Virus record (IMG/VR): IMGVR_UViG_3300045988_031856 | Length of the DNA: 41,956 nt | Direction: 5' to 3' (one strand) | DNA from: a virus | Shown here: piece after piece, positions 4,701 to 12,685 of the stretch | Layout of the letters: the number at the start of each line of letters is the position of its first letter | Position numbering within the stretch: position 1 is the stretch's first letter | The notes under the pieces: generated by a model | Database searches by the model: none | Seen by the model: only the letters and a program-made list of their open reading frames with translations | Told to the model about the DNA's origin: nothing | Made by a program: the position numbers and the translations under genes

Positions 4701-5873
4701 TTGGCGGACAAAACAGTAGGCGAGCTTCCGAGAGCATCAACCGTAACAACGACAGACCTGTTTGTTATGGAACAGGCAGGACAGGCAAAGTCCCTGACCG
4801 GACAGGTGCTTATCAATGACCTTGCAACGGCTCTTGACGGTCATGGCGGCATTAAGAGCATTACCCTAAACGATGACTATACCCTGACGTTTATCATGGC
4901 TGACGATACGGAGGTAAAGACGACCTCGGTACGCGGCGCGACCGGCGCAAAGGGAGACAAGGGAACGGATGGTCGGGCAATTACGAGCGTTGTGAAAATC
5001 AGCACGTCCGGCCTTGTGGACACTTACAAAATCTCGTTCTCGGACAACACAAGCACCAACTTTACCGTGACAAACGGCTCATCCATCAAGAGCATTGCCA
5101 AAACCGGAACGAGCGGCTTGACGGATACCTACACCGTTACGCTCACGGACGGAACGACCTCCACGTTCAACGTAAAGAACGGCAACGGTATTGCGTCCAT
5201 CACGCTGCAAAGCGGCACACACGCCGCCGGTACGACGGACACATACAAAATCACGTTCGACAATGGGGAGTTTACCACATTCTCCGTCTATAACGGCATG
5301 AACGGCTCCGGCTCTGTCGTGTCAGTGAACATGAAATCGCCGGACGCCTCCGGCAATGTGACGTTAACCGGCGACGATATTCATGTGAGCGCAGACGATG
5401 AAACCACGATTCCGGATGCGATCGAAGCGAAACAGGCGGCGACAAAAGATCTTGCCGCAGAAGCGACGCTTGCGGACGGAGACTTTTTCCCATTCTACGA
5501 TGTTTCCGTATCGCTGAATCGGAAAACCCCTTGGTCTAACATCGTGTCAAAAATCCGCGCGGCCTTTAAGACCACGGCGCTGCCCGTCGATTCCGGCGGC
5601 ACGGGGGCCGCAGACGCAGCAACGGCGCGGGCGAATCTTGGAGCGCTGTCCAACGCCAACGGCGCGGTAGGCACGGCGAATCTCGGCGGCAAGGTCGTTA
5701 CGGCGGATAAGATTGCAGACAAGACGGTCGGCGCGGGTCAGCTCGCCGACGACATCCCCTACACCAAGTTCGGTCTTGTAGCCGATCAGGTGCGGCATGT
5801 TTACGCCGGAACGACGGAGCCGGGCGCAGAGCTCGGCAGCGACGGGGATATTTATCTCATGTATTCGGAGTGA
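4701..5873 (+). CDS. Tail fibre protein with a collagen-like segment and three tandem beta-repeats
   Basis: TTG start after AAGGAGGG. It has G-X-Y triplets (GATGAKGDKGTDG) and three ~38-aa repeats (…TSGLxDTYKISF/TVTL…FxVxNG). The C-terminal motif LPVDSGGTGAADAATARANLGA is typical of phage fibres. Confidence 0.75.
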   Translation: MADKTVGELPRASTVTTTDLFVMEQAGQAKSLTGQVLINDLATALDGHGGIKSITLNDDYTLTFIMADDTEVKTTSVRGATGAKGDKGTDGRAITSVVKISTSGLVDTYKISFSDNTSTNFTVTNGSSIKSIAKTGTSGLTDTYTVTLTDGTTSTFNVKNGNGIASITLQSGTHAAGTTDTYKITFDNGEFTTFSVYNGMNGSGSVVSVNMKSPDASGNVTLTGDDIHVSADDETTIPDAIEAKQAATKDLAAEATLADGDFFPFYDVSVSLNRKTPWSNIVSKIRAAFKTTALPVDSGGTGAADAATARANLGALSNANGAVGTANLGGKVVTADKIADKTVGAGQLADDIPYTKFGLVADQVRHVYAGTTEPGAELGSDGDIYLMYSE

Positions 5874-5882
5874 GGTGCGGGT

Positions 5883-6386
5883 ATGGCATGGTCGCAGACC
5901 GCTCCGACGCTGCCCAGTGGCAGCGCGTGGGAGCAGGAAAAGAGCGTTTTCGGAAGGGCGAACCATTGGAGCCTTTCCGGAAAGCTGTACATTGCTCGAC
6001 TGAACGGCAGACAGTTCGCGGTTAAAGCAGAGCTTACGAGCGACAACGGCAGCTACGGGACTTATTACCCTCCGAGCAAGTGGACGCTACGATGCGATAT
6101 CGGCGGCGTCAGCGGCACGGAAGACACGTCCTTCGACGTATCAAAAGGAACGACAACATTCTATTTCGTAGGTGATGCTGGCGAGGGCGTAAATATCACC
6201 GCAAAGGTCGGCGGCGTTGGCGCCGCGGTCGCCGTTCAAACCGCAACATTCACCGCCCCCGCGCTGCTCGGCTCGACGATTTATTTTAAGGTCTCCGGCG
6301 TGTGGAAGCAGGCGACGCTGTACCGCAAGGGCGGCACTTGGAAAAATGCGCTGGCAGAATTCAAAGCAGGAGGTATATGGAAATGA
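5883..6386 (+). CDS. Hypothetical protein, possible fibre or receptor-binding accessory
   Basis: 167 aa, between the fibre and the endolysin. No motif recognised. Confidence 0.5.
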   Translation: MAWSQTAPTLPSGSAWEQEKSVFGRANHWSLSGKLYIARLNGRQFAVKAELTSDNGSYGTYYPPSKWTLRCDIGGVSGTEDTSFDVSKGTTTFYFVGDAGEGVNITAKVGGVGAAVAVQTATFTAPALLGSTIYFKVSGVWKQATLYRKGGTWKNALAEFKAGGIWK

Positions 6387-7138
6387 ACGGTATTGACGTT
6401 TCCGAGCATCAGGGCGATTTCGATTTCACGCCGTACAAGGATGGCTTTGTCATCATCCGCGGCGGCTACGGCATCCGAAATGCCGACAAATGGGCGGAGC
6501 GCAACATCGCCAAATGCGACGCGCTCGGTATCCCGTGGGGCATCTACTGGTACAGCTATGCGCTGAATGTGCAGACGGCTAAATTGGAGGCGGAGCGGTG
6601 TCTTCGCTTCCTCAATGGCCGGAAACCCCGGCTCGGCGTGTGGTTCGATATGGAGGACGCGGACGGGTACAAGCAGACGAACGGCTTCCCGTCTAACGAG
6701 ACGATCACCGCGATGTGCAAGACGTTCTGCGCGGCTATGGAAGAGGCCGGGAACAGGACCGGCGTGTACGCCAGCTTGAGCTGGTTTGATACGCACATCG
6801 GCGAGACGGGGTACGACCGCTGGATCGCCGCGTGGGGCGCGAACGACGGCGTGCATTATCCCGACCTCTCCGGGCAGTGCGTCATGCAGCAGTACCGGGG
6901 CAGCCCGCTGGATCTGGATATTTTGTATGTGCCGCTTTCGTATTTTGACGATGGCGCGGCGGGCGGAGCAGAGCCCCGCCCCTACGAAAAGGACGGGGAA
7001 TGCGTAAGCGTCTCGGCGATGGCGCAGGAGGTGCTTGACGGGAAGTGGGGCAACGGCGAGGAGCGAAAGCAGAAGCTCGGCGCGTGGTTTTACGATCTCG
7101 TGCAGGGCGAAGTAAACCATATCCTCGGAGTAAAGTAG
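6377..7138 (+). CDS. Endolysin: GH25 muramidase with a C-terminal CW_7 (Cpl-7-like) wall-binding motif
   Basis: ATG at 6377 follows AGGAGG. The N-terminus NGIDVSEHQGDFDF…GIYWYSYA…WFDMED is typical of GH25. The C-terminus VLDGKWGNGEERKQKLGAWFYDLVQGEVNHIL matches the CW_7 repeat pattern. Confidence 0.9.
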   Translation: MEMNGIDVSEHQGDFDFTPYKDGFVIIRGGYGIRNADKWAERNIAKCDALGIPWGIYWYSYALNVQTAKLEAERCLRFLNGRKPRLGVWFDMEDADGYKQTNGFPSNETITAMCKTFCAAMEEAGNRTGVYASLSWFDTHIGETGYDRWIAAWGANDGVHYPDLSGQCVMQQYRGSPLDLDILYVPLSYFDDGAAGGAEPRPYEKDGECVSVSAMAQEVLDGKWGNGEERKQKLGAWFYDLVQGEVNHILGVK

Positions 7139-7147
7139 GAGAAGAAA

Positions 7148-7534
7148 ATGGAAATCATAAAGACAATCATCACCGCGTGCGGCGGGGCTGCCGTTGCTGG
7201 CATCTTCTCGCTGATCCTCGCCAACCGTAAGAACAAAAGCGAGATCGTGAAGCGTTTGGATGCATTAGACGGTAAGCTCGTAAAGCACATCGAGGACGAC
7301 GCTGCGTGCCGCGCGGACGAGGCGCGAAGCCGCATCCTCCGCTTCGGCGATGAGGTGCGGCAGGGCGTATTACACACCGCCGAGCATTGGGCGGACGTTC
7401 TTCGGGACGTTGATCGATACGAGGACTACTGCTCCGGCCACCCGCTGTATGAGAACAACCGCGCCGCAAACACCATCCAGCATCTTAATTGCGTCTACGC
7501 GGGCCATCTAAAGAAAAACGATTTTTTGAAGTAA
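7148..7534 (+). CDS. Membrane-anchored protein of unknown function within the lysis cassette
   Basis: One N-terminal TM segment (IITACGGAAVAGIFSLILA) followed by a ~100-aa soluble domain. It lies between the endolysin and the holin. Confidence 0.6.
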   Translation: MEIIKTIITACGGAAVAGIFSLILANRKNKSEIVKRLDALDGKLVKHIEDDAACRADEARSRILRFGDEVRQGVLHTAEHWADVLRDVDRYEDYCSGHPLYENNRAANTIQHLNCVYAGHLKKNDFLK

Positions 7535-7546
7535 GGAGAATTTGCA

Positions 7547-7867
7547 ATGAACGAAATCATCACTACCTACGGCATGGAAATCATCAAGTACATCATCCTC
7601 GCCATCTGCGGCATTGCCGCGTCTTACGCCGCGAAGCTGTACGAAAAGTATGTCAACACCGATACCAAGCGCAAGGTAGCGGCAACTACCGTTGCGTACA
7701 TTGAACAGGTGTATAAGGATGTCCACGGCGACGAGAAGCTGTCCCGCGCCATGGCTGTCGCTGCCTCCATGCTCGAACAGAAGGGCATAAAAACCACGGA
7801 GGACGAGCTTAAGGTGCTGCTTGAGGCCGCCGTTAAGGAAATGAACGATAAGTTCAAAGCCACCTGA
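7547..7867 (+). CDS. Holin, LL-H family-like
   Basis: 106 aa with an N-terminal TM (IIKYIILAICGIAASYAA). The remainder (VAYIEQVYKDVHGDEKLSRAMAVAASMLEQKGI) matches the Holin_LLH pattern as recalled. Confidence 0.7.
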   Translation: MNEIITTYGMEIIKYIILAICGIAASYAAKLYEKYVNTDTKRKVAATTVAYIEQVYKDVHGDEKLSRAMAVAASMLEQKGIKTTEDELKVLLEAAVKEMNDKFKAT

Positions 7868-8004
7868 CGGCAACAAAAAATTTGTAAACCGACACTGCGG
7901 AATCATGAAAGAATCCGTAAAAACATTCTGCCGCATCAATGGCGTCGAGGCGTCTGAAAGCCTCGCAGAGACACTTTTTGAAGCATACATGGAGAGTGTA
8001 GCCA

Positions 8005-8268
8005 ATGACGACAGAGAGCATCCTACGGAGTTTAACAACGCCGGGGACAAAGAATAAGCTGCAATTCCCGCGCGAGCTGCGCGAACAGTTTGAGCGGGAC
8101 TGCGGCTTTACCGATGAGGAATTAAAAATCTTCCGCCTGCGGGCAAAGGGCATGAGCGTGTTGCAAATTTCTTTCGCCATGCAGACGGACACGGAACTAT
8201 ACGGCACAGAAAAGGTAGAGCGCCGTATACGGGCGATAAAGGACAAGATCGCCGCTGCAATCGAATGA
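8005..8268 (+). CDS. Small HTH regulator (sigma-70 region 4 / LuxR-like)
   Basis: FTDEELKIFRLRAKGMSVLQISFAMQ is a typical region-4-type HTH. GGAGAG lies 8 nt upstream of the ATG. Confidence 0.65.
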   Translation: MTTESILRSLTTPGTKNKLQFPRELREQFERDCGFTDEELKIFRLRAKGMSVLQISFAMQTDTELYGTEKVERRIRAIKDKIAAAIE

Positions 8269-8288: not shown

Positions 8289-8321
8289 GAGGGCTAACCG
8301 ACGGGTTAGCCCTCTTTTTTT
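8289..8321 (+). terminator. Rho-independent terminator
   Basis: gagggctaacc-gacg-ggttagccctc followed by ttttttt. Confidence 0.85.
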
Positions 8322-8354
8322 ATGCGACAATGGGGGCAGAAAGGACGTGAAGCA

Positions 8355-8708
8355 ATGGAAAACTACTACCAACAGCCACAGCAGTTTTACGGCGGATACC
8401 AGAGACCGCAGCCCATGCAGCAGATTGCTCCCGGATACGTCTGTAAGCCGGTCACTAGCCGCGAAGAGGCTATTGCCACGAGCACGGACTACTTTTCTCT
8501 CGGCGTCGTTATGCCGGACATCGGGCACAGCATGATCTACCTGAAACGCTTTAATCAGCAGACGGGGGCTTCCGACTTCTTTGATTTCAAGCTCTTTACC
8601 CCGGAACAAACTCCGACTGTAGAGTACGCGACGAAAGCCGACCTTGACGCTCTGCGGGCGGAGCTGACAGCGAAAAAGCGCCGGAGGGTAGAAGACGATG
8701 ATGAATAA
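8355..8708 (+). CDS. Accessory cassette protein A (Q/P/Y-rich N-terminus, acidic/basic tail)
   Basis: ATG at 8355 (MENYYQQPQQFYGGYQRPQPMQQ…). The C-terminus is AELTAKKRRRVEDDDE. No family recognised. Confidence 0.6.
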   Translation: MENYYQQPQQFYGGYQRPQPMQQIAPGYVCKPVTSREEAIATSTDYFSLGVVMPDIGHSMIYLKRFNQQTGASDFFDFKLFTPEQTPTVEYATKADLDALRAELTAKKRRRVEDDDE

Positions 8709-8919
8709 TCCGCTTTTCAATTTGATAAGCCTCGCCCGTACCGGCGGAAACCCGATGATGCTAATACAGCAGATGGCGGGACGTGATCCGCGAGCGCAAC
8801 AGGCGTTAAAGATGGTTGAGGGCAAGACGCCCGACCAGCTCAGGCAGATGGCGGAGAACATGGCGAAGGAACGCGGAACGACCGTGGACGAAATCGCCAA
8901 AGGTCTTGGGCTTAAATAA
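8698..8919 (+). CDS. Accessory cassette protein B, small helical protein
   Basis: GGAGGG lies 9 nt upstream of the ATG; 73 aa. It overlaps protein A by 11 nt. Confidence 0.6.
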   Translation: MMNNPLFNLISLARTGGNPMMLIQQMAGRDPRAQQALKMVEGKTPDQLRQMAENMAKERGTTVDEIAKGLGLK

Positions 8920-8924
8920 ACATT

Positions 8925-9012
8925 CTCCTATCAGTTTCGGCATCTTGATTAAAAGCCGCGTCTCGAATGCAGCCGGGAGGCGCGCGCCCGGATGTAAATA
9001 AACTGATAGGAG
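8925..9012 (+). promoter_or_regulatory. Structured leader: a 13-bp perfect long-range stem enclosing ~62 nt and sequestering the SD of the next gene
   Basis: ctcctatcagttt (8925-8937) is the exact reverse complement of aaactgataggag (9000-9012). The 3' arm contains AGGAG and is followed by ttttttct and then the ATG at 9021. Inner hairpins exist (cggc…gccg, ccggg…cccgg). Confidence 0.5.
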
Positions 9013-9020
9013 TTTTTTCT

Positions 9021-9740
9021 ATGGCAGACGATTTTATGAGCGGATTCCTCGCCGGACAGGGCGACGGCAATTCCAACCGCGGCGGGATGTTCGGCGGTGA
9101 CGGTTGGTGGGCTATCATCATCTTTGCGCTGATTTTCGGTTGGGGCAACGGCGGCTATGGCTTCGGCGGCAATTCTGGCGGTGTAGTCGATGGTTATGTT
9201 CTTACCTCTGACTTTGCGAACATTGAGCGCAAGATCGACGCGGTGAACAACGGCGTTTGTGACGGCTTCTACGCGATGAACACTGGAATGCTTAACGGCT
9301 TTGCTGGTGTGACGCAGGCCGTGACGAGCGGCTTCTCCGCGGCGGAGCTCGCCCGCTGCAATCAGCAGGCGGCGCTTATGCAGCAGCTCAACGCCATGCA
9401 GATGCAGAATCAGAACTGCTGCTGCGAGAACCGGCAGGCTATCGCACAGGTTCGCTATGACATGGCGACGCAGGCGTGCGATACCCGGAACACCATCCAG
9501 AATGTTGCCCGTGACATCACGGACAACCAGAACGCCGGAACCCGTGCTATCCTCGACTTCCTCACGCAGAGCAAAATCCAGACCCTTGAGGCGGACAATC
9601 AGGCGCTGCGGCTTGCCGCTTCGCAGAGCGCACAGAACGCGACGCTCATCAATGCGCTTCGCCCGTCGCCTATCCCCTCGTACAGCGTGGCTAACCCGTA
9701 TTGCTGCAACACGAACACTTGCAGCGGCTGCGGCTACTGA
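9021..9740 (+). CDS. Accessory cassette protein C: G-rich N-terminus, one TM, Q/N-rich coiled coil, Cys-rich C-terminus
   Basis: ATG at 9021 follows AGGAG. Sequence features in order: GGMFGGDGWWAIIIFALIFGWGNGGYGFGGNSGG, a Q/N-rich region (QQAALMQQLNAMQMQNQNCCCENRQ), and the ending ANPYCCNTNTCSGCGY. Confidence 0.65.
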   Translation: MADDFMSGFLAGQGDGNSNRGGMFGGDGWWAIIIFALIFGWGNGGYGFGGNSGGVVDGYVLTSDFANIERKIDAVNNGVCDGFYAMNTGMLNGFAGVTQAVTSGFSAAELARCNQQAALMQQLNAMQMQNQNCCCENRQAIAQVRYDMATQACDTRNTIQNVARDITDNQNAGTRAILDFLTQSKIQTLEADNQALRLAASQSAQNATLINALRPSPIPSYSVANPYCCNTNTCSGCGY

Positions 9741-9788
9741 ACCAACGTTAATCGGGGCGGGAAATCCCGCCCCTGAAAGGAGTTTATA

Positions 9789-10178
9789 ATGGCTTGCAAA
9801 CCCGTTTGTCAGCTTTGCAAAAGGCTGATTCTTAGCCAAGCGATCACGTTTACCGGAGGGAATCTGGTTGTCAACCTCCCGGATGGCAACTACTCCAACG
9901 GAGAAAAATACTGTATCGTTCTGGCGCAGAGCATCCCAACGACGGCGACGATTAACGCGCCGGTCGTGTTCACCATTGGCGCGGGAACGGCGCAGTTCCC
10001 GCTGACGAATCGTTGCTGCGCTCCCGTAACTGCGTGTGGTGTGCGGACTCGGACGAAGTACAGCACGATTGTAGTCACCAGTGCCACGGGCGGCACGTTC
10101 CGAATGATCGGGAAACCGTGCTGCTCGCCGAGCAATGATCTTACCGCAATTAACGCGGAGACAGGAGCGACGACATGA
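9789..10178 (+). CDS. Accessory cassette protein D: beta-rich, T/A/G-rich protein with paired cysteines
   Basis: AAGGAG RBS. The N-terminus is MACKPVCQLCK, with CC pairs (NRCCAPVTAC, KPCCSPS). A strong hairpin (ggggcggg-aaat-cccgcccc, 9754-9773) lies upstream. Confidence 0.65.
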   Translation: MACKPVCQLCKRLILSQAITFTGGNLVVNLPDGNYSNGEKYCIVLAQSIPTTATINAPVVFTIGAGTAQFPLTNRCCAPVTACGVRTRTKYSTIVVTSATGGTFRMIGKPCCSPSNDLTAINAETGATT

Positions 10179-10729
10179 GAGCGGACAGAATCAGACGCAT
10201 CCGAGACTACCAGACGCAGAATAACCGTGACTATGAGCCGCAGGACAGATACCGTGACAGCCGAGGCCGTGAGCATTACAACAATGGTCGCTATGCCCCA
10301 CGCAATGACTACCGCGACGAATACACGGACTACTACGACGACCGCCGCCGAATTGGATTCTCCTACGAGCCGCGTATGGGAGAGAGTTACGGCGGAGAGT
10401 ATGACCGCGGCTATGCCGGAGGGTACGACCGTATGACCCGCGAAATGGCGGACGAGTGGATGCACGGCCTTGAGAACGAGGACGGCAGTAGGGGCGCGCA
10501 TTGGAGCTTTGACCAGACGTCAAATCTTCTCGAACAGAAGAAAATAGACTGTGATCCGATGGAGTTCTATGTCGCCATTAACATGCTGTACTCGGACTAC
10601 TTCAAGGTGGCAAAGAAATTCAACGTCAACAACACGGAGTTCTACGCCGACCTTGCCGAAGCGTTCCTTTGCGATAAGGACGCGGACGAAGATAAGCTCG
10701 TTCGGTATTACGAGTGTATCGTTGAGTGA
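10175..10729 (+). CDS. Accessory cassette protein E: R/D/Y-rich low-complexity N-terminus plus a conserved-looking helical C-terminal domain
   Basis: ATGA overlap with protein D. The N-terminus is RDYQTQNNRDYEPQDRYRDSRGREHYNNGRYAPRNDYRDEYTDYYDDRRR. The C-terminus is ADEWMHGLENEDGSRGAHWSFDQT…EFYVAINMLYSDYFKVAKKF. Confidence 0.65.
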   Translation: MRADRIRRIRDYQTQNNRDYEPQDRYRDSRGREHYNNGRYAPRNDYRDEYTDYYDDRRRIGFSYEPRMGESYGGEYDRGYAGGYDRMTREMADEWMHGLENEDGSRGAHWSFDQTSNLLEQKKIDCDPMEFYVAINMLYSDYFKVAKKFNVNNTEFYADLAEAFLCDKDADEDKLVRYYECIVE

Positions 10730-10738
10730 GCAAAGAAA

Positions 10739-10766
10739 AAAGGAGGGCCTTTCAGCCCTCCTTTTC
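10739..10766. terminator. Bidirectional terminator hairpin between convergent genes
   Basis: aggagggc-ctttca-gccctcct is flanked by an A-run on the left and a T-rich run on the right. It overlaps the 3' end of the minus-strand HTH gene. Confidence 0.7.
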
Positions 10767-10928
10767 CTTGTTCGCAATGTAGAATGCAATAAGCCGGACA
10801 ACGTACTTCGGCGGGTTGGAAACGCCACTCTCCCAGTTTTCGATGCTTCGCTTTGGAATGCCAAGAAGTTCGGCGAAAGCCCGCTGCGTGAGGCCGGTAG
10901 CCTCACGCAGCGCCTTAATCTCACTCAT
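10752..10928 (-). CDS. Small XRE-family HTH protein (antitoxin-like)
   Basis: The internal ATG gives MSEIKALREATGLTQRAFAELLGIPKRSIENWESGVSNPPKYVVRLIAFYI. The pattern …WE.G…P… is typical of HigA/MqsA-like XRE antitoxins. It overlaps the upstream gene by 8 nt. Confidence 0.7.
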   Translation of the reverse strand: MSEIKALREATGLTQRAFAELLGIPKRSIENWESGVSNPPKYVVRLIAFYIANKEKEG

Positions 10929-11193
10929 TGACCGCCACCTTGCCCCAGAACACCGGGCGAGGCGCGTCGCCGCCGAAGTCAAAGAGAACGGAATAGAGAT
11001 CGCCGTCGTCACCGCGGCAGATCGGGGAATAACCATCGAAAAGATCGTCGCTCAGGCTGTCGGCGTAATTCTCGCCGCGGGTGCGGCGGATGTCGTCGAG
11101 AACTTCGCGGTCGAACTGCGTCGGATCGTCCGTCCATTTGTAACCCTTGCCGGTGAGGTCAAGCTCGCGGTTGTCGATGATTTCAAATTTCAT
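10921..11193 (-). CDS. Acidic 90-aa protein of unknown function, first gene of a two-gene operon
   Basis: ATG at 11193 follows GGAAAGGA (MKFEIIDNRELDLTGKGYKWTDDPTQF…). No family recognised. Confidence 0.6.
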   Translation of the reverse strand: MKFEIIDNRELDLTGKGYKWTDDPTQFDREVLDDIRRTRGENYADSLSDDLFDGYSPICRGDDGDLYSVLFDFGGDAPRPVFWGKVAVNE

Positions 11194-11248
11194 TTTTTGA
11201 TCCTTTCCGGGGCGCTGCCCCTCTGTATTTTTCTTCCTTACGCTTATT

Positions 11249-11277
11249 ATACTACCACCAATTTGGTGATTCGTCAA
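11249..11277 (-). promoter_or_regulatory. Sigma-70-like promoter with a palindromic operator in the spacer
   Basis: The minus strand reads TTGACG-17 nt-TAGTAT(AAT). The spacer contains CACCA-AAT-TGGTG (plus-strand 11256-11268). Confidence 0.55.
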
Positions 11278-11304
11278 TAAGAAGTTTACAAAAACCACAA
11301 ATTT

Positions 11305-11392: not shown

Positions 11393-12685
11393 CTAAACAA
11401 GATCAAAAAAGATATCACCGTTGTTTGCGATGACAATTCGGCGGATGAAGCGATTCCATGCTTCCTTTTTCCCGCTTGGCGGCAGTTTGTCGTATGCGTC
11501 GATTAATGACATGACAAGCGCTTCGTCGATGGGCTTCGGCTCTGGTGGTACGTTGAGTTTTTCCTTTAGGACAGTGTATTCCATTTCGTATTTCTCGCGG
11601 TTGATTAGATCAGCAAGGTAAAGGTCTGTCAGCTTGTCCATTTTCCGTTTGATTGCCGCCGTATCAACCGGCGGTTTTGTTTTTCCCGCTTTGAGCTTTG
11701 CGTTGTGCGCCTGTACCTCTATTGACAGTTTGGCGAGTAAATATTTTTCAAGTGTTGCCTCGTTGATTCTCTTTTTGTGGCGGCAGATGCCGACTTCATA
11801 ATTCTTACACTTGTAATAAAAGTAGTCCGTCCCTCGTTGCCGTGTTGAATGCGTCACAAGGCGTTGTCCGCATTCGGCGCACCAGACAAGGCCGGAGAAA
11901 AGCCAAGCGTGACGTGATCCGTTGTTGCGAACGCTCCTCGCCGTCAGCATCCGTTGTACAAGGGCGAAATCCTCCGGCGGTATCAGCGCGTCGCAGACCT
12001 GAATCCCGTTATTCTTTCCGATGTACCGTTCATTGCCCAGCGCGTTCTTGATGTGATGATTTCCGCGCATAATTCCAAACTCGGAAACGAGCATCTTCTT
12101 GACGTGGTTAACGCTTCCCGTGGCGATGTAATCTTCAAACATTCGCCTCGCAATGTGCGCCGTTTCCTCGTCGATGCAAAGGCGGCTCTCGACGGCCTTT
12201 AACCCGATGGGCGTTTTACCCGCCGGGCAGAGACCAAGCTCCCGCTTATGCTGCATGATCCGTTTAACGCGCTCTGACGTTCTGTCTGCCTCGTCCTGTG
12301 CGACGGACAGCATGATGTTGACCTTTAACCGACCTGCGGCGGTGGCGGTCTCGTAGTCTTCATATGTCGCTTGCCAGACAACACCGCGCGCGTCAAGAAC
12401 CTCCTGCGCCTTGTAAAACTCGCTGATGTTGCGGAACCACCGGTCGAGCTTTGTGAACGCCACGAGATCGATTTTCTCCGCTTCCACGTCAGACAGAAGC
12501 CGCTGCAATTCAGGCCGCTTTGACACGCTTTTCCTGCCGCTTACCCCGGCGTCGACGTAATAATCAACGACCTTGTGCTTGTTTTCCTCCGCCCATCTTT
12601 TTAGGCTGTCCTTCTGGTCATCGACGGAAAGGCCGTGAACGGCTTGTTCTTCCGTGGAGACGCGGACATAAAGTGCAACTCTCAT
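11393..12685 (-). CDS. int: Large serine recombinase (integrase)
   Basis: The N-terminus MRVALYVRVSTEEQ… is a resolvase catalytic domain with a Ser nucleophile. It also has a recombinase domain, a zinc ribbon (CAECGQRL…YYKCKNY) and a C-terminal coiled coil; 430 aa. Confidence 0.9.
   Translation of the reverse strand: MRVALYVRVSTEEQAVHGLSVDDQKDSLKRWAEENKHKVVDYYVDAGVSGRKSVSKRPELQRLLSDVEAEKIDLVAFTKLDRWFRNISEFYKAQEVLDARGVVWQATYEDYETATAAGRLKVNIMLSVAQDEADRTSERVKRIMQHKRELGLCPAGKTPIGLKAVESRLCIDEETAHIARRMFEDYIATGSVNHVKKMLVSEFGIMRGNHHIKNALGNERYIGKNNGIQVCDALIPPEDFALVQRMLTARSVRNNGSRHAWLFSGLVWCAECGQRLVTHSTRQRGTDYFYYKCKNYEVGICRHKKRINEATLEKYLLAKLSIEVQAHNAKLKAGKTKPPVDTAAIKRKMDKLTDLYLADLINREKYEMEYTVLKEKLNVPPEPKPIDEALVMSLIDAYDKLPPSGKKEAWNRFIRRIVIANNGDIFFDLV

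Follow-up and report, generated by a model that had tools for sequence, protein, structure and literature searches.

A conserved, enzyme-free accessory operon of gut tailed phages encodes a cysteine-rich protein predicted to form a membrane-anchored rod

Results

Gene content and boundaries of the cassette

The window analysed here is the whole viral record IMGVR_UViG_3300045988_031856 (41,956 nucleotides), in which the cassette is carried by the complete circular genome, of about 41.8 kb, of a temperate phage. The ORF list and independent gene calls agree with the initial annotation on five co-directional plus-strand genes between two strong hairpins, and Pfam-type matches of the neighbouring genes confirmed that they follow an endolysin and a holin and precede an integrase. 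The features discussed below are the following.

6302-7138, upstream of the cassette: GH25+CW_7 endolysin
7547-7867, upstream of the cassette: Phage_holin_6_1 holin
8005-8268, plus strand: gene R, 87 aa, sigma-70 region-4 / LuxR(GerE)-type HTH protein
8289-8321, plus strand: upstream terminator, an 11-pair stem (8289-8314) with 7 G-C pairs and a 4-nt loop, then TTTTTTT (8315-8321)
8323-8331, plus strand: predicted extended -10 promoter, TG-c-GACAAT, directly 3' of the T-run and 8 nt ahead of the ribosome-binding site
8355-8708, plus strand: gene A, 117 aa (ORF open from 8322)
8698-8919, plus strand: gene B, 73 aa, overlapping A by 11 nt
8920-9020, plus strand: structured B-C leader (elements P1, P2 and P3)
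9021-9740, plus strand: gene C, 239 aa (ORF open from 8967; real start at 9021 behind TAGGAG)
9102-9146, plus strand: Gly/Trp-flanked hydrophobic segment of C (aa 28-42)
9210-9659, plus strand: single long helix of C in the AlphaFold2 model (aa 64-213)
9417-9425, plus strand: invariant CCC motif within the long helix of C (aa 133-135)
9754-9773, plus strand: GC-rich C-D hairpin, GGGGCGGG-aaat-CCCGCCCC, read directly from the sequence
9789-10178, plus strand: gene D, 129 aa, type D1
10175-10729, plus strand: gene E, 184 aa, type E1, overlapping D through ATGA
Within E, plus strand: disordered, R/D/Y-rich N-terminal half (about aa 1-85)
10415-10714, plus strand: helical DUF7841 domain of E (aa 81-180; Pfam 7.6e-30, 103.9 bits against a cutoff of 25.2)
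10740-10769: closing terminator, apparently bidirectional, with its stem at 10740-10763, an A-run before it and a T-rich tail after it
11393-12685, minus strand, downstream of the cassette: serine integrase

The five cassette genes are real genes and not chance ORFs. The same five were called independently in the assembly collection, whose index lists the identical C protein in 85 blocks, and relatives are numerous (more than 7,900 at 90% identity for C, more than 2,000 for D). Gene A most likely starts at 8355 rather than at 8322, because of its AAAGGA ribosome-binding site and because the independent calls also give a protein of 117 aa; the ATG at 8322 falls within the promoter-like motif. 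The genes had been described as tightly coupled, which holds for the overlapping pairs A-B and D-E but not for B-C and C-D, where gaps of 101 nt and 48 nt, both structured, separate the genes. The composition of the cassette is not deviant (55.9% GC versus 53.3% for the genome). Among close relatives of this phage the operon is constant while the adjacent slot varies and holds anti-restriction cargo (ArdC-N/MPTase-PolyVal).

Transcription and translation signals

The description of the cassette as terminator-bounded was borne out on both sides. The upstream hairpin with its T-run is a predicted intrinsic terminator insulating the cassette from the late/lysis operon, and an analogous hairpin and T-run precede the first module gene at many other loci. 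It had been proposed that no room was left for a promoter and that expression needed read-through. We found instead the TG-n-GACAAT motif immediately behind the T-run, with a predicted transcript start near 8338-8340. The order hairpin, T-run, TGn, -10 recurs 5' of the first module gene at about 20-25 divergent loci, and (A)TG(C)(G/A)A(T/A/C)AAT or another -10-like hexamer lies 2-7 nt past the T-run in about 18 of 24 non-redundant hairpin-bearing loci. The promoter looks sigma-A-like, not sigma-K- or sigma-E-like. At the other end, the closing hairpin (-28.6 kcal/mol, z = -6.17; none of 200 shuffles folds as well) is common to the cassette and a convergent minus-strand HTH gene, and looks bidirectional because it is flanked by A and T runs.

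The B-C leader of the window folds at -39.5 kcal/mol (z = -3.95), a stability reached by none of 200 shuffles, and matched no Rfam family. In P1, nucleotides 8925-8937 pair with 9000-9012 and bury the Shine-Dalgarno sequence of C (AGGAG, 9008-9012); P2 is a hairpin (8938-8958) with the conserved loop CTTGATTAAAA, and P3 is a GC-rich hairpin (8973-8991) followed by TGTAAATAAA. Across 13 loci, P1 comprises 11 pairs, of which 5 show compensatory double changes, and the P2 stems covary around the conserved loop. In modules of the other type the B-C element is shorter, a perfect GC-rich palindrome with AGATAAA or TAAATAAA behind it. The C-D gap holds a hairpin of at least -12 kcal/mol strength in 75 of 84 non-redundant loci, 32 of these with a T-rich tail, which the window copy lacks; it is likely to act as an attenuator or 3' stabiliser raising the output of C relative to D and E. 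From the sequestering leader with its 5 compensatory pairs and the hairpin after C (75/84 loci), C is predicted to be the abundant core or major subunit under tight control. The operon as a whole looks autonomous, with its own terminators and promoter and a leader-gated C.

Protein C, the invariant core

C is present in all 91 loci that we examined and matches phrog_16490 at 6e-42. Its family (1,773 clusters at 50% identity) is confined to proteins of 120-333 aa, without fusions, and some copies of the gene host a group I intron and HNH insertion. The layout consists of an acidic Gly-rich N-tail, a Trp-flanked hydrophobic segment, a long helix, and a Pro-rich then Cys-rich tail; the window protein has 10 cysteines and ends in ANPYCCNTNTCSGCGY. 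An AlphaFold2 model computed on a diverse alignment (n = 77 sequences) has a pLDDT of 73, with disordered ends and one helix (residues 64-213) that exceeds 85 for residues 100-215. The predicted helix spans about 150 residues, or about 22 nm, and with a hydrophobic periodicity of 3.65 residues is predicted to be coiled-coil-forming. Foldseek and sequence searches with C returned nothing from the PDB.

The hydrophobic segment is short, about 13 residues between Trp belts, and has no flanking positive charges (mean K+R of 0.5 before and 0.8 after it), so that membrane insertion and orientation of C are uncertain. The N-tail is short and acidic (on average 2.8 acidic versus about 0.5 basic residues), and the C proteins of Bacteroides phages and of vir335 carry charged N-terminal extensions of 50-80 residues.

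Partner proteins and linked genes

The compositional features reported earlier (a Q/P/Y-rich N-terminus of A, the Gly/Trp hydrophobic segment of C, CC doublets in D, an R/D/Y-rich N-terminus of E) were all recovered. In A, the disordered Q/P/Y-rich N-terminus is followed by a small beta-rich conserved domain, an amphipathic helix and an acidic tail. The family, found in 82/91 loci, corresponds to phrog_21718 (2.7e-4 for the window copy, 5.5e-36 for the Dulem 33 copy) and has no sequence match in Pfam or the PDB. B, a small helical M/Q/N-rich protein, occurs in 79/91 loci, always between A and C, with sub-threshold Pfam matches only (HRDC at 0.022).

The D slot is filled in 88 of the 91 loci. 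In the window it holds D1, a Cys-rich, beta-rich protein with 9 cysteines including two CC doublets; C3, C7, C10 and C42 are invariant in the D1 alignment. Its AlphaFold2 model is all-beta but of low confidence (pLDDT 49.5), and Foldseek on it was uninformative. In 55/91 loci the slot is taken by the unrelated protein D2 (hhalign probability 0.4% versus D1), with which D1 is predicted to be functionally interchangeable. Of 30 D2 proteins, two give matches to BclA_C that span the domain completely, at about 1e-7 and short of Pfam's cutoff; D1 has no detectable similarity to D2 or BclA_C. The E slot is occupied by E1, E2 or E3 in 89/91 loci. Residues 1-80 of the window E contain 22% R, 16% Y and 14% D, and its DUF7841 domain also occurs in 16 crAss-like records; in the E1 protein of cr52_1 the domain order is inverted, so that the disordered part forms the C-terminus. 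Other modules carry E2, E3 or E4, also with R/G/Y-rich disordered stretches, and RGG/RGY-like stretches are found in E-slot proteins. No signal peptide was detected in A, B, D or E.

A gene of the R family lies 5' of A or X in 54/91 loci, including loci with the module in another genome region. Family members match Sigma70_r4 (3.9e-6), GerE (7.8e-6) and PHROG sigma-factor families; the window copy had no Pfam match at E<0.01. X, missing from the window and from 40/91 loci, has a papain/transglutaminase-like Cys...His...Asp signature, its Cys/His motif being reminiscent of C39 peptidases, and matched no Pfam peptidase family and no solved structure.

The five window proteins match no characterised virion, lysis or replication family, in agreement with the initial annotation, and no characterised defence or toxin family either. 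PADLOC returned no match for the cassette, no protein of any module variant matched an enzyme family, no sequence match to a solved structure was obtained for the module, and the window proteins yielded no nucleic-acid-binding domain and no coat or exosporium family.

Distribution of the module

Far from being restricted to this genome, homologues of A-E co-occur massively: the colinear string (R)-[X]-A-B-C-D-E-[E4] was found in all 91 loci, at differing genome positions, and C on at least 594 IMG/VR contigs. Carriers are Clostridia siphophage-like genomes (many of the hosts being Clostridia, C. perfringens included), crAss-like phages, a 74 kb Bacteroides phage and, possibly, a Methanomassiliicoccales virus. 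Some contigs are binned to non-spore-forming Oscillospiraceae such as Subdoligranulum. In crAss-like phages C and E1 are direct neighbours, and C is also found in a cultured Bacteroides uniformis phage; a C profile restricted to Firmicutes-type loci retrieves crAss-like and Bacteroides phage proteins at E of about 1e-32 to 1e-34.

In most phages the module lies behind lysis genes, and the nearest large upstream ORF is an endolysin in about half of the 91 loci. The classical cargo position assigned earlier to the cassette is supported: across the loci an endolysin is usually found upstream and a Tyr/Ser integrase or host gene often downstream. The lysins and integrases that flank the module belong to many unrelated types. 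Other positions occur: between portal and major capsid genes (Dulem 35, Bajarodcaudo 2), after the receptor-binding protein (Dulem 36), after the integrase (Dulem 39), and beside recombination or replication genes (CPD1, C3_41T2LP). In cr116_1, genes annotated as holin and L,D-carboxypeptidase precede the module by 1-2 kb. In cr52_1 the E1-C string is directly 3' of a gene annotated LysB/FtsL-like in the record; LysB of P2 is a spanin. The cr52_1 C gene contains in-frame TAG codons, as do the surrounding late genes, and in crAss-like phages recoded TAG marks late structural and lysis genes (bioRxiv 10.1101/2021.08.26.457843). Depositors have labelled homologues 'spike protein/glycoprotein' or 'outer capsid protein/viral fiber'.

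Discussion

We interpret the cassette as a representative of an enzyme-free accessory operon that is conserved and mobile among gut tailed phages. The operon is carried by thousands of gut phages, crAss-like ones included, and is not the idiosyncratic cargo of one phage; its products are predicted to build a membrane-anchored, Cys-rich rod-and-cap assembly. The observations to be interpreted are the conservation, the gene order, the regulatory anatomy and the predicted shape of C.

We tentatively propose, as a possibility to which we give less than even probability, that the cassette encodes a structural assembly that is anchored in the membrane, is linked to lysis, forms late and acts at the cell envelope. 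The operon would form its own transcription unit, the upstream terminator stopping read-through from the lysis genes and the extended -10 promoter firing immediately downstream. Translation of C would be gated by the leader base-paired to its ribosome-binding site, and the hairpin 3' of C would lower the output of D and E before the closing terminator ends the unit. C might then oligomerise into rods anchored in the cytoplasmic membrane and cross-linked or metal-bridged via cysteines, with CCC as a ring position and a Pro/Cys-rich tip; D would cap the rods, and A, B and E, which are rich in disorder, would serve as adaptor or matrix partners. Such an assembly would form late in the lytic cycle, alongside the lysis genes, and would take part in egress or in controlling lysis, or else form a barrier at the envelope.

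The link to late and lysis genes in unrelated lineages (endolysin neighbours, cr52_1, cr116_1) argues for this proposal, as does the fact that the module is not tied to one virion type or envelope type. The lysis linkage is confounded, because the site behind the lysis genes is a generic cargo site of temperate Firmicutes phages, which weighs against it. Late timing is suggested by module position and by stop-codon recoding in a single crAss-like genome; the location of the CPD1 and C3_41T2LP modules beside recombination/replication genes speaks against it, and early expression could follow there. Moreover, if the C rod is extracytoplasmic, A, B, D and E, without signal peptides, would not meet it before lysis. 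Monoderm hosts are not known to need envelope disruption beyond holin and endolysin.

An unlikely but serious alternative is that a membrane-anchored C array blocks DNA entry or adsorption of other phages, excluding superinfection or protecting the lysogen as an envelope barrier; the operon would run on its own constitutive promoter in lysogens and be expressed early in virulent phages. Known exclusion proteins are often single-pass membrane proteins, and the autonomous unit, whose sigma-A-type extended -10 promoter would need no late activator, suits this role. So do the position beside the integrase or prophage end, the usual site of exclusion and defence cargo, the anti-restriction genes in the adjacent slot of close relatives, and the occurrence in temperate and virulent phages, next to early-type genes in CPD1 and C3_41T2LP. 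However, PADLOC gave no match, a set of 5-7 co-conserved structural proteins is far more elaborate than known exclusion systems, the recoded stop codons of the cr52_1 C gene are of late type, and conservation is far above that of typical, fast-turning-over defence cargo.

We also consider rather unlikely a cytoplasmic, membrane-tethered scaffold or condensate that acts at the membrane, in the manner of phi29 p16.7 and p1, as an organiser of phage DNA replication or of assembly. C would be N-out/C-in, and disordered Q/N-, R/G/Y- and M/Q-rich regions of A, B, D and E would bring these proteins to the C rod. All partners would then share the cytoplasm, as their lack of signal peptides implies; the acidic short N-tail of C fits N-tail translocation, the RGG/RGY-like stretches of E-slot proteins and the DNA-binding HTH of R suit such a scaffold, and in several virulent phages the module sits next to genes for replication or recombination. 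Yet searches of the window proteins revealed no nucleic-acid-binding domain, the charged N-extensions of the Bacteroides phage and vir335 proteins are unlikely to be translocated and suggest N-in/C-out, and so many conserved cysteines would be unusual in a purely cytoplasmic rod unless they bind metal.

More doubtful is an accessory virion structure, with C as a coiled-coil fibre on the particle, D as its knob and A, B and E as assembly factors. A long rod with a variable tip, the distant likeness of D2 to the trimeric C1q-like BclA_C knob, the depositors' labels and the modules placed between portal and major capsid genes (two phages) or after a receptor-binding protein (one phage) would fit, and intron and HNH insertions, as in gene C, often sit in conserved, highly expressed phage genes. 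Against this, the module is found in siphophage-like and crAss-like phages and in larger ones of 74-83 kb, whose virion architectures are unrelated, an unusual range for a virion attachment. In most genomes it follows the lysis genes and has a terminator, a promoter and a regulator of its own; C has a hydrophobic membrane-like segment, its partners are disordered, and no solved structure was matched by sequence.

The initial annotation had suggested lysogenic-conversion cargo building a spore-coat/exosporium-like or other host surface layer, which we now regard as improbable. It had in its favour the coat-like composition (Cys-rich, Gly/Tyr-rich, R/D/Y-rich), the two BclA_C-like D2 proteins, the GerE/LuxR HTH class of R, the signature in X and the many Clostridia carriers. 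The presence of C in crAss-like and other Bacteroides phages, and of E1 in crAss-like ones, whose hosts do not sporulate, argues against a spore-specific role, as do the Subdoligranulum-type contigs; none of the window proteins could be assigned to a coat or exosporium family, A, B, D and E carry no secretion signal, the promoter is not of sporulation type, and 'GerE' is merely Pfam's label for the LuxR-type HTH family. Finally, a toxin/immunity or bacteriocin-like module, in which X would cut a Cys-rich precursor (C or D) after Gly-Gly, could draw on the Gly-Gly motifs and Cys-rich C-terminus of C, the C39-like motif of X and a sequestered ribosome-binding site, frequent for toxic membrane proteins, but is highly improbable given the many loci lacking X, the failure of X to match a peptidase family or solved structure, the absence of a transporter, maturase or immunity-like gene, the lack of PADLOC, Pfam or NCBIfam support, and a C that is modelled as a conserved 240-residue rod and not as a peptide precursor.

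Comparison with known systems

C resembles class I viral fusion glycoproteins and coiled-coil fibres in its Gly-rich aromatic hydrophobic N-segment, very long helix and Cys cluster, a likeness that is compositional and architectural only, as Foldseek and PDB sequence searches return nothing. Such proteins gave homologues their 'viral fiber' and 'spike protein/glycoprotein' labels. With BclA and the exosporium the module shares a rod-plus-globular-head logic and, through D2, the BclA_C matches, and with the spore-coat proteins ExsY/CotY (Cys-rich) and CotG its composition; unlike BclA, it has no collagen-like stalk and its window D1 shows no detectable similarity to BclA_C, and unlike coat systems it also occurs in phages of non-sporulating hosts.

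The phi29 proteins p16.7 and p1 are small, non-enzymatic and self-associating, p16.7 having a coiled coil behind an N-terminal membrane anchor, an arrangement that C recalls. In contrast to them, C has no sequence similarity and no detected DNA-binding domain, is twice as long and is Cys-rich, and the module usually adjoins lysis genes instead of lying in an early operon. Spanins (lambda Rz/Rz1, P2 LysB/LysC, T1 gp11) are approached by C in its N-terminal hydrophobic anchor, conserved cysteines, Pro-rich C-terminus, a long helix of coiled-coil type that at about 22 nm would span periplasm or wall, and a location beside lysis genes, adjoining the LysB-like-annotated gene in cr52_1. C differs from them in having neither sequence similarity, nor a lipoprotein partner or lipobox; most module hosts are monoderm Clostridia with no outer membrane to fuse, and the four or more extra partner proteins have no spanin counterpart.

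Phage morons, of which lambda lom and bor are examples, are autonomous promoter-gene-terminator units, and prophages of Staphylococcus and Streptococcus carry toxin genes downstream of their lysis modules. Like morons, the cassette is an insulated unit with its own promoter-like element and terminators, lies between lysis genes and the integrase/attachment site, and varies in genome position among phages. Unlike morons, its GC content is not deviant and the operon stays constant while the neighbouring slot varies; it comprises 5-7 co-conserved genes instead of one or two, and is conserved over thousands of phages, virulent crAss-like ones included.

Organization and surroundings of the operon

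The window was found to be a circularly assembled complete phage genome of ~41.8 kb, its first 100 nt being repeated at 41838 (1-119 versus 41838-41956), with a GC content of 53.3%. All five ORFs and both hairpins of the initial annotation are present, and so are the odd compositions that it reported. Two starts were corrected on the basis of the sequence and of independent gene calls on identical contigs: A begins at 8355, behind an AAAGGA ribosome-binding site, and the core gene C at 9021. Tail genes, an endolysin and a holin lie upstream of the cassette and a serine integrase downstream:

6302-7138, GH25+CW_7 endolysin
7148-7534, 128-aa protein with an N-terminal transmembrane segment (phrog_37604, unknown function), between endolysin and holin
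7547-7867, Phage_holin_6_1 holin
10752-11036, minus strand, HTH_3 gene, weakly MqsA antitoxin-like (3.7e-4)
10921-11298, minus strand, 125-aa ORF with no family match, upstream of the HTH_3 gene and overlapping it
11393-12685, minus strand, serine integrase

The 128-aa protein may be a further component of the lysis cassette, and the HTH_3 gene and the overlapping ORF could form a toxin-antitoxin-like pair. The endolysin type, together with the Oscillospiraceae/Clostridia hosts of related phages, indicates a monoderm host. In contigs encoding an identical C protein the operon itself is constant and the slot between E and the integrase is variable. In three of these contigs (L096, L097 and L099) the region downstream of E (~4900-6150) carries ArdC-N and MPTase-PolyVal genes instead of the two minus-strand genes of the window, and one of the three also has a TacA-like gene in this slot. 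Such replacement among identical-C contigs marks the slot as a probable variable hot spot for anti-defence cargo.

A conserved module with an invariant core and exchangeable partners

We compared 91 module-carrying loci, drawn from phage records encoding C-like proteins, from GTDB genomes (80 loci, mostly Oscillospiraceae or Clostridia bins, including the isolates Anaerotruncus colihominis, Agathobaculum desmolans and Muriventricola aceti) and from cultured C. perfringens phages. Protein families were counted with profile HMMs iterated over all ORFs of these loci. The gene order is constant and on one strand, (R)-[X]-A-B-C-D-E-[E4], where R is an HTH gene, X an extra gene and the numbered D and E families are alternative proteins of a slot. 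The cassette is a conserved, mobile and enzyme-free operon, predicted to be separately regulated.

Occurrence of the module families in the 91 loci
C: 91/91, invariant core
A: 82/91
B: 79/91
D1: 33/91, type in the window
D2: 55/91, alternative type
E1 (DUF7841): 20/91, type in the window
E2: 65/91
E3: 4/91
E4: 32/91
R (HTH gene): 54/91, at 8005-8268 in the window
X: 51/91, absent from the window

The D types and the E types share their slots and occur in mixed combinations. Profile-profile comparison showed no similarity between D1 and D2 or among E1-E4 (hhalign probability <4%), which gave no backing to D1 as a diverged D2 or to kinship of E1-E4. A further small gene of ~45-70 aa often stands between R and X or A (upstream of X in L036, L045 and L077, upstream of A in L041 and L042; for example MYERLLACGF.E.MA.DIL...PD..EL..YV).

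The C family comprises 1,773 clusters at 50% identity, all of 120-333 aa, with no domain fusion among the best 150 of the C representatives, and was found on at least 594 IMG/VR contigs. A C profile restricted to Firmicutes-type loci (Z set to 1e6 for E-values) matched proteins of the crAss-like phages cr52_1 (1e-34) and cr116_1 (5e-32), of the Bacteroides uniformis phage C3_41T2LP (5e-32) and of a Methanomassiliicoccales-assigned virus (3e-7). The C-family protein of Caudoviricetes sp. vir335 (L092, 3503-4426), whose host is given as Methanomassiliicoccales, scored 36 bits with this profile; it is phrog_16490 in the record's own annotation and has two CCC motifs, without the Pro/Cys tail. In cr52_1, a DUF7841 protein is encoded directly upstream of the C homologue. 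Cultured carriers of the module are the C. perfringens phages CPD1, XP41-N3 and 17DYC, phage C3_41T2LP, and a chromosomal locus, presumably a prophage, of A. colihominis DSM 17241. Only one match came from the plasmid collection, which lists a Vescimonas fastidiosa replicon of 861 kb.

The core protein and its partners

C (239 aa) matches phrog_16490 over residues 16-231 (6e-42). An AlphaFold2 model based on a diverse 77-sequence alignment (pLDDT 73) shows it as a predicted anchored coiled-coil-type rod rich in conserved cysteines. In this model a disordered, acidic, Gly-rich tail (residues 1-28) is followed by a short hydrophobic helix (30-39) with Trp and Gly on both sides, a Gly-rich linker and one unbroken helix of ~22 nm (64-213; pLDDT >85 for 100-215), and the protein ends in a disordered tail that is first Pro-rich, then Cys-rich. 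The hydrophobic periodicity of the long helix is 3.65 residues, which is hendecad-like. Invariant or nearly so are the GW...G anchor motif, CCC at 133-135, SQ..Q and a P.P.P.Y..NP tail motif, and most C sequences have a GCGC-type Cys-rich terminus. The charges flanking the hydrophobic segment do not fix its topology; the longer charged N-terminal extensions of the homologues from Bacteroides phages and the archaeal virus hint at an N-in/C-out orientation. We had suspected a B-like segment fused to the N-terminus of the Bacteroides-phage C proteins, which found no support. Foldseek with the single-helix C model returned no hit in the PDB. A search for interfaces revealed weak and uniform co-variation of the D type with particular C regions (ratios 1.06-1.20).

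Insertions were observed in and around gene C. In Bajarodcaudo virus 2 (L007, 6425-6662) the gene is split within the codons of the Gly/Trp hydrophobic segment, and L081 (~7590-7880) has a related insertion at the same site; these insertions measure ~240-420 nt. The L007 insertion aligns with the full length of the group I intron model RF00028, at a score under the gathering threshold (26.9 bits, E = 8e-5). A gene for a 207-aa HNH-like endonuclease lies between B and C in CPD1 (L010, 4618-5241), and in several other loci the C-D gap is enlarged by insertions of ~1 kb. Homing elements seem to target the module.

In protein A, a Y/P/Q-rich tail leads into a small beta domain, which is conserved and is followed by a helix and an acidic terminus. 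D1 has four invariant cysteines (C3, C7, C10 and C42); its AlphaFold2 model is all-beta and unusable at a pLDDT of 49.5, and Foldseek hits obtained with it are noise (TM-score ~0.2). Residues 81-180 of E match Pfam DUF7841 (PF25223) with 103.9 bits against a gathering cutoff of 25.2, and all E-slot proteins combine disordered R/G/Y- or R/D/Y-rich stretches with helical domains. The sequences of A-E contain no signal peptide or lipobox. The sole enzyme-like member of the module is X (~129 aa, phrog_3754, ~7,000 relatives; for example L013, 6774-7163), with an invariant D-C...H-V-V...D-x-W-x-S pattern (Cys...His...Asp) that resembles a papain/NlpC/C39/transglutaminase-like catalytic signature; it matches no Pfam or PDB entry and no peptidase family.

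Searches of Pfam, NCBIfam, PHROGs and PADLOC with the five proteins and the module variants returned only DUF7841 and unknown-function PHROGs. Family scans gave no enzyme match for module proteins, PADLOC no hit to a known or candidate defence model for the eight proteins tested, and PDB sequence and profile searches with C, D1, E, X, D2 and A nothing significant. No paper naming these families was found in the full-text literature on DUF7841/PF25223 and the PHROG identifiers, and the literature on crAss annotations and on the cultured carrier phages held nothing on function.

Control elements of the operon

Upstream of A, a hairpin ends in seven T (8289-8321, T-run at 8315-8321). Directly behind the T-run stands TG-c-GACAAT (8323-8331), which resembles a sigma-A extended -10 element and is followed by the ribosome-binding site and the ATG at 8355. 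Ahead of the first module gene, whether X or A, the arrangement recurs in many divergent loci, and a motif equivalent to that of the window stands in ~18 of 24 non-redundant loci. Given this recurrence of hairpin, T-run and TGn/-10-like hexamer, the cassette is most likely driven by its own predicted extended -10 promoter, so that expression by read-through or antitermination, as first proposed, would not be needed.

The 101-nt spacer between B and C folds with an energy of -39.5 kcal/mol (z = -3.95). Its closing stem P1 pairs CTCCTATCAGTTT with AAACTGATAGGAG, burying the Shine-Dalgarno sequence of C; across 13 loci it comprises 11 pairs, with compensatory double changes in 5. The inner hairpin P2 has covarying stems of 3-5 bp and a conserved loop, CTTGAtaAAAA. 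An Rfam scan of 8920-9020 gave no match at E<=1. We rejected a -35 role for the P2-loop TTGATT, since 44 nt separate it from the closest -10-like element. Modules of the D2/E2 type have a shorter leader instead, in which an A-rich box comes after a perfect palindrome rich in GC. We regard the leader sequestering the ribosome-binding site of C as a candidate new regulatory RNA. Further downstream, 75 of 84 non-redundant loci have a strong hairpin in the C-D gap, with a T-rich tail in 32 of these 75, which implies that C would be produced in excess of D and E. The hairpin downstream of E (-28.6 kcal/mol, z = -6.2), a bidirectional terminator, ends the unit.

Genome position and timing of expression

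In most temperate Clostridia phages the module lies behind the lysis genes and ahead of a tyrosine or serine integrase or of host DNA, and the preceding endolysins are of at least seven unrelated types. Other positions were also found: in Dulem 35 and Bajarodcaudo 2 it separates the portal or minor-capsid genes from those of the scaffold and the major capsid protein, in Dulem 36 it stands behind the receptor-binding protein, in Dulem 39 behind an integrase, and in CPD1 and C3_41T2LP next to recombination or replication genes.

In cr52_1 (L008, 47-7926) TAG is used as a sense codon. Two in-frame TAG codons occur in the C homologue, seven in the LysB/FtsL-like flanking gene and seven in the downstream gp25, with none in the DUF7841 gene or gp24. 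Borges et al. (bioRxiv 10.1101/2021.08.26.457843) report that in crAss-like phages recoded stops are a mark of late genes for structure and lysis. Together with the lysis genes that lie next to the module in unrelated lineages, this recoding favours expression of the module late in infection, although the location next to recombination genes in CPD1 and C3_41T2LP leaves this timing insecure.

Possible modes of action

The most economical mechanism would be a rod-and-cap structure that assembles itself, is anchored in the membrane, has disordered proteins as adaptors, is made late in infection and acts at the envelope; we propose it tentatively, as a possibility that falls short of being probable. 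A more far-reaching view, which we consider unlikely, is that the operon encodes a supramolecular apparatus not recognised before, which gut phages infecting Clostridia, Bacteroidota and perhaps methanogenic archaea would share. It would be a membrane-anchored array of ~22 nm coiled-coil rods (C) with beta-sandwich caps (D) and a matrix of disordered proteins (A, B and E), its many cysteines would lock it by oxidation or metal binding, and the core subunit would be translated under the control of a new cis-regulatory RNA. Such an apparatus would add to egress or lysis control a new step that is independent of the host envelope, or would serve as a protective matrix resembling keratin.

Among the alternatives, superinfection exclusion comes first and appears rather improbable, followed by a cytoplasmic membrane-tethered scaffold, for which we see little likelihood. 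An accessory virion fibre is quite unlikely: the spread of the module over unrelated virion types, its usual place behind the lysis genes and its own control elements all weaken this reading. A spore or cell-surface conversion layer, suggested at first, is very unlikely, as no coat family occurs among the window proteins and, above all, homologues are found in Bacteroidota phages, crAss-like ones included. The least credible is a bacteriocin or toxin module, of which the toxin version was also suggested initially, since the 91 loci lack a transporter or maturase and X fits no peptidase family.

The module matters by its scale: the core protein alone falls into ~1,770 clusters at 50% identity, and its carriers include crAss-like phages, which are among the most abundant phages of the human gut. 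An enzyme-less phage module of five to seven genes that is conserved, mobile and separately regulated is unusual; its makeup implies a structural or physical mechanism for which present accounts of phage life cycles or lysogenic conversion have no place. The module is testable in cultured systems (C. perfringens phages, C3_41T2LP and A. colihominis DSM 17241).

Comparison with known systems

As a predicted transcription unit, the cassette follows the pattern of morons, except for its ordinary base composition. It shares with morons the terminators that isolate it on both sides (8289-8321 and the downstream hairpin) and the changing genome position and backbone; its GC content (55.9% versus 53.3% for the genome) lacks the deviation typical of morons. 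The predicted hydrophobic segment and 150-residue helix of C might correspond to the type II inner-membrane anchor and periplasmic coiled coil of a spanin, although the flanking charges point to no definite topology; A-E include neither an outer-membrane lipoprotein partner nor a second anchor, and the diderm host of spanins is missing for the window phage, whereas the Bacteroides-phage homologues do have one. Spore coat and exosporium systems differ in that the window proteins have no coat or exosporium match in Pfam or NCBIfam, and in that the module reaches beyond spore-forming hosts, with C and E1 present in crAss-like phages and C also in a further phage of Bacteroides. Coat and exosporium genes would be expressed under sigma-E or sigma-K; the promoter-like motif of the cassette resembles a sigma-A element. 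Two of 30 D2 members match BclA_C over the full domain at ~1e-7, below the Pfam cutoff. A class II bacteriocin or RiPP locus differs by having a precursor with a C39 peptidase/ABC transporter or a maturase, and X is absent from the window. For both spanins and BclA-type proteins a defining feature was looked for and is lacking in the cassette; phi29 p16.7 has no sequence similarity, and its DNA-binding domain was not detected. All component families are catalogued solely as of unknown function (PHROGs, DUF7841). We therefore rate the encoded system, which in architecture comes closest to morons, spanins, BclA-type rod-and-head proteins and phi29 p16.7, as a putative new kind of system.
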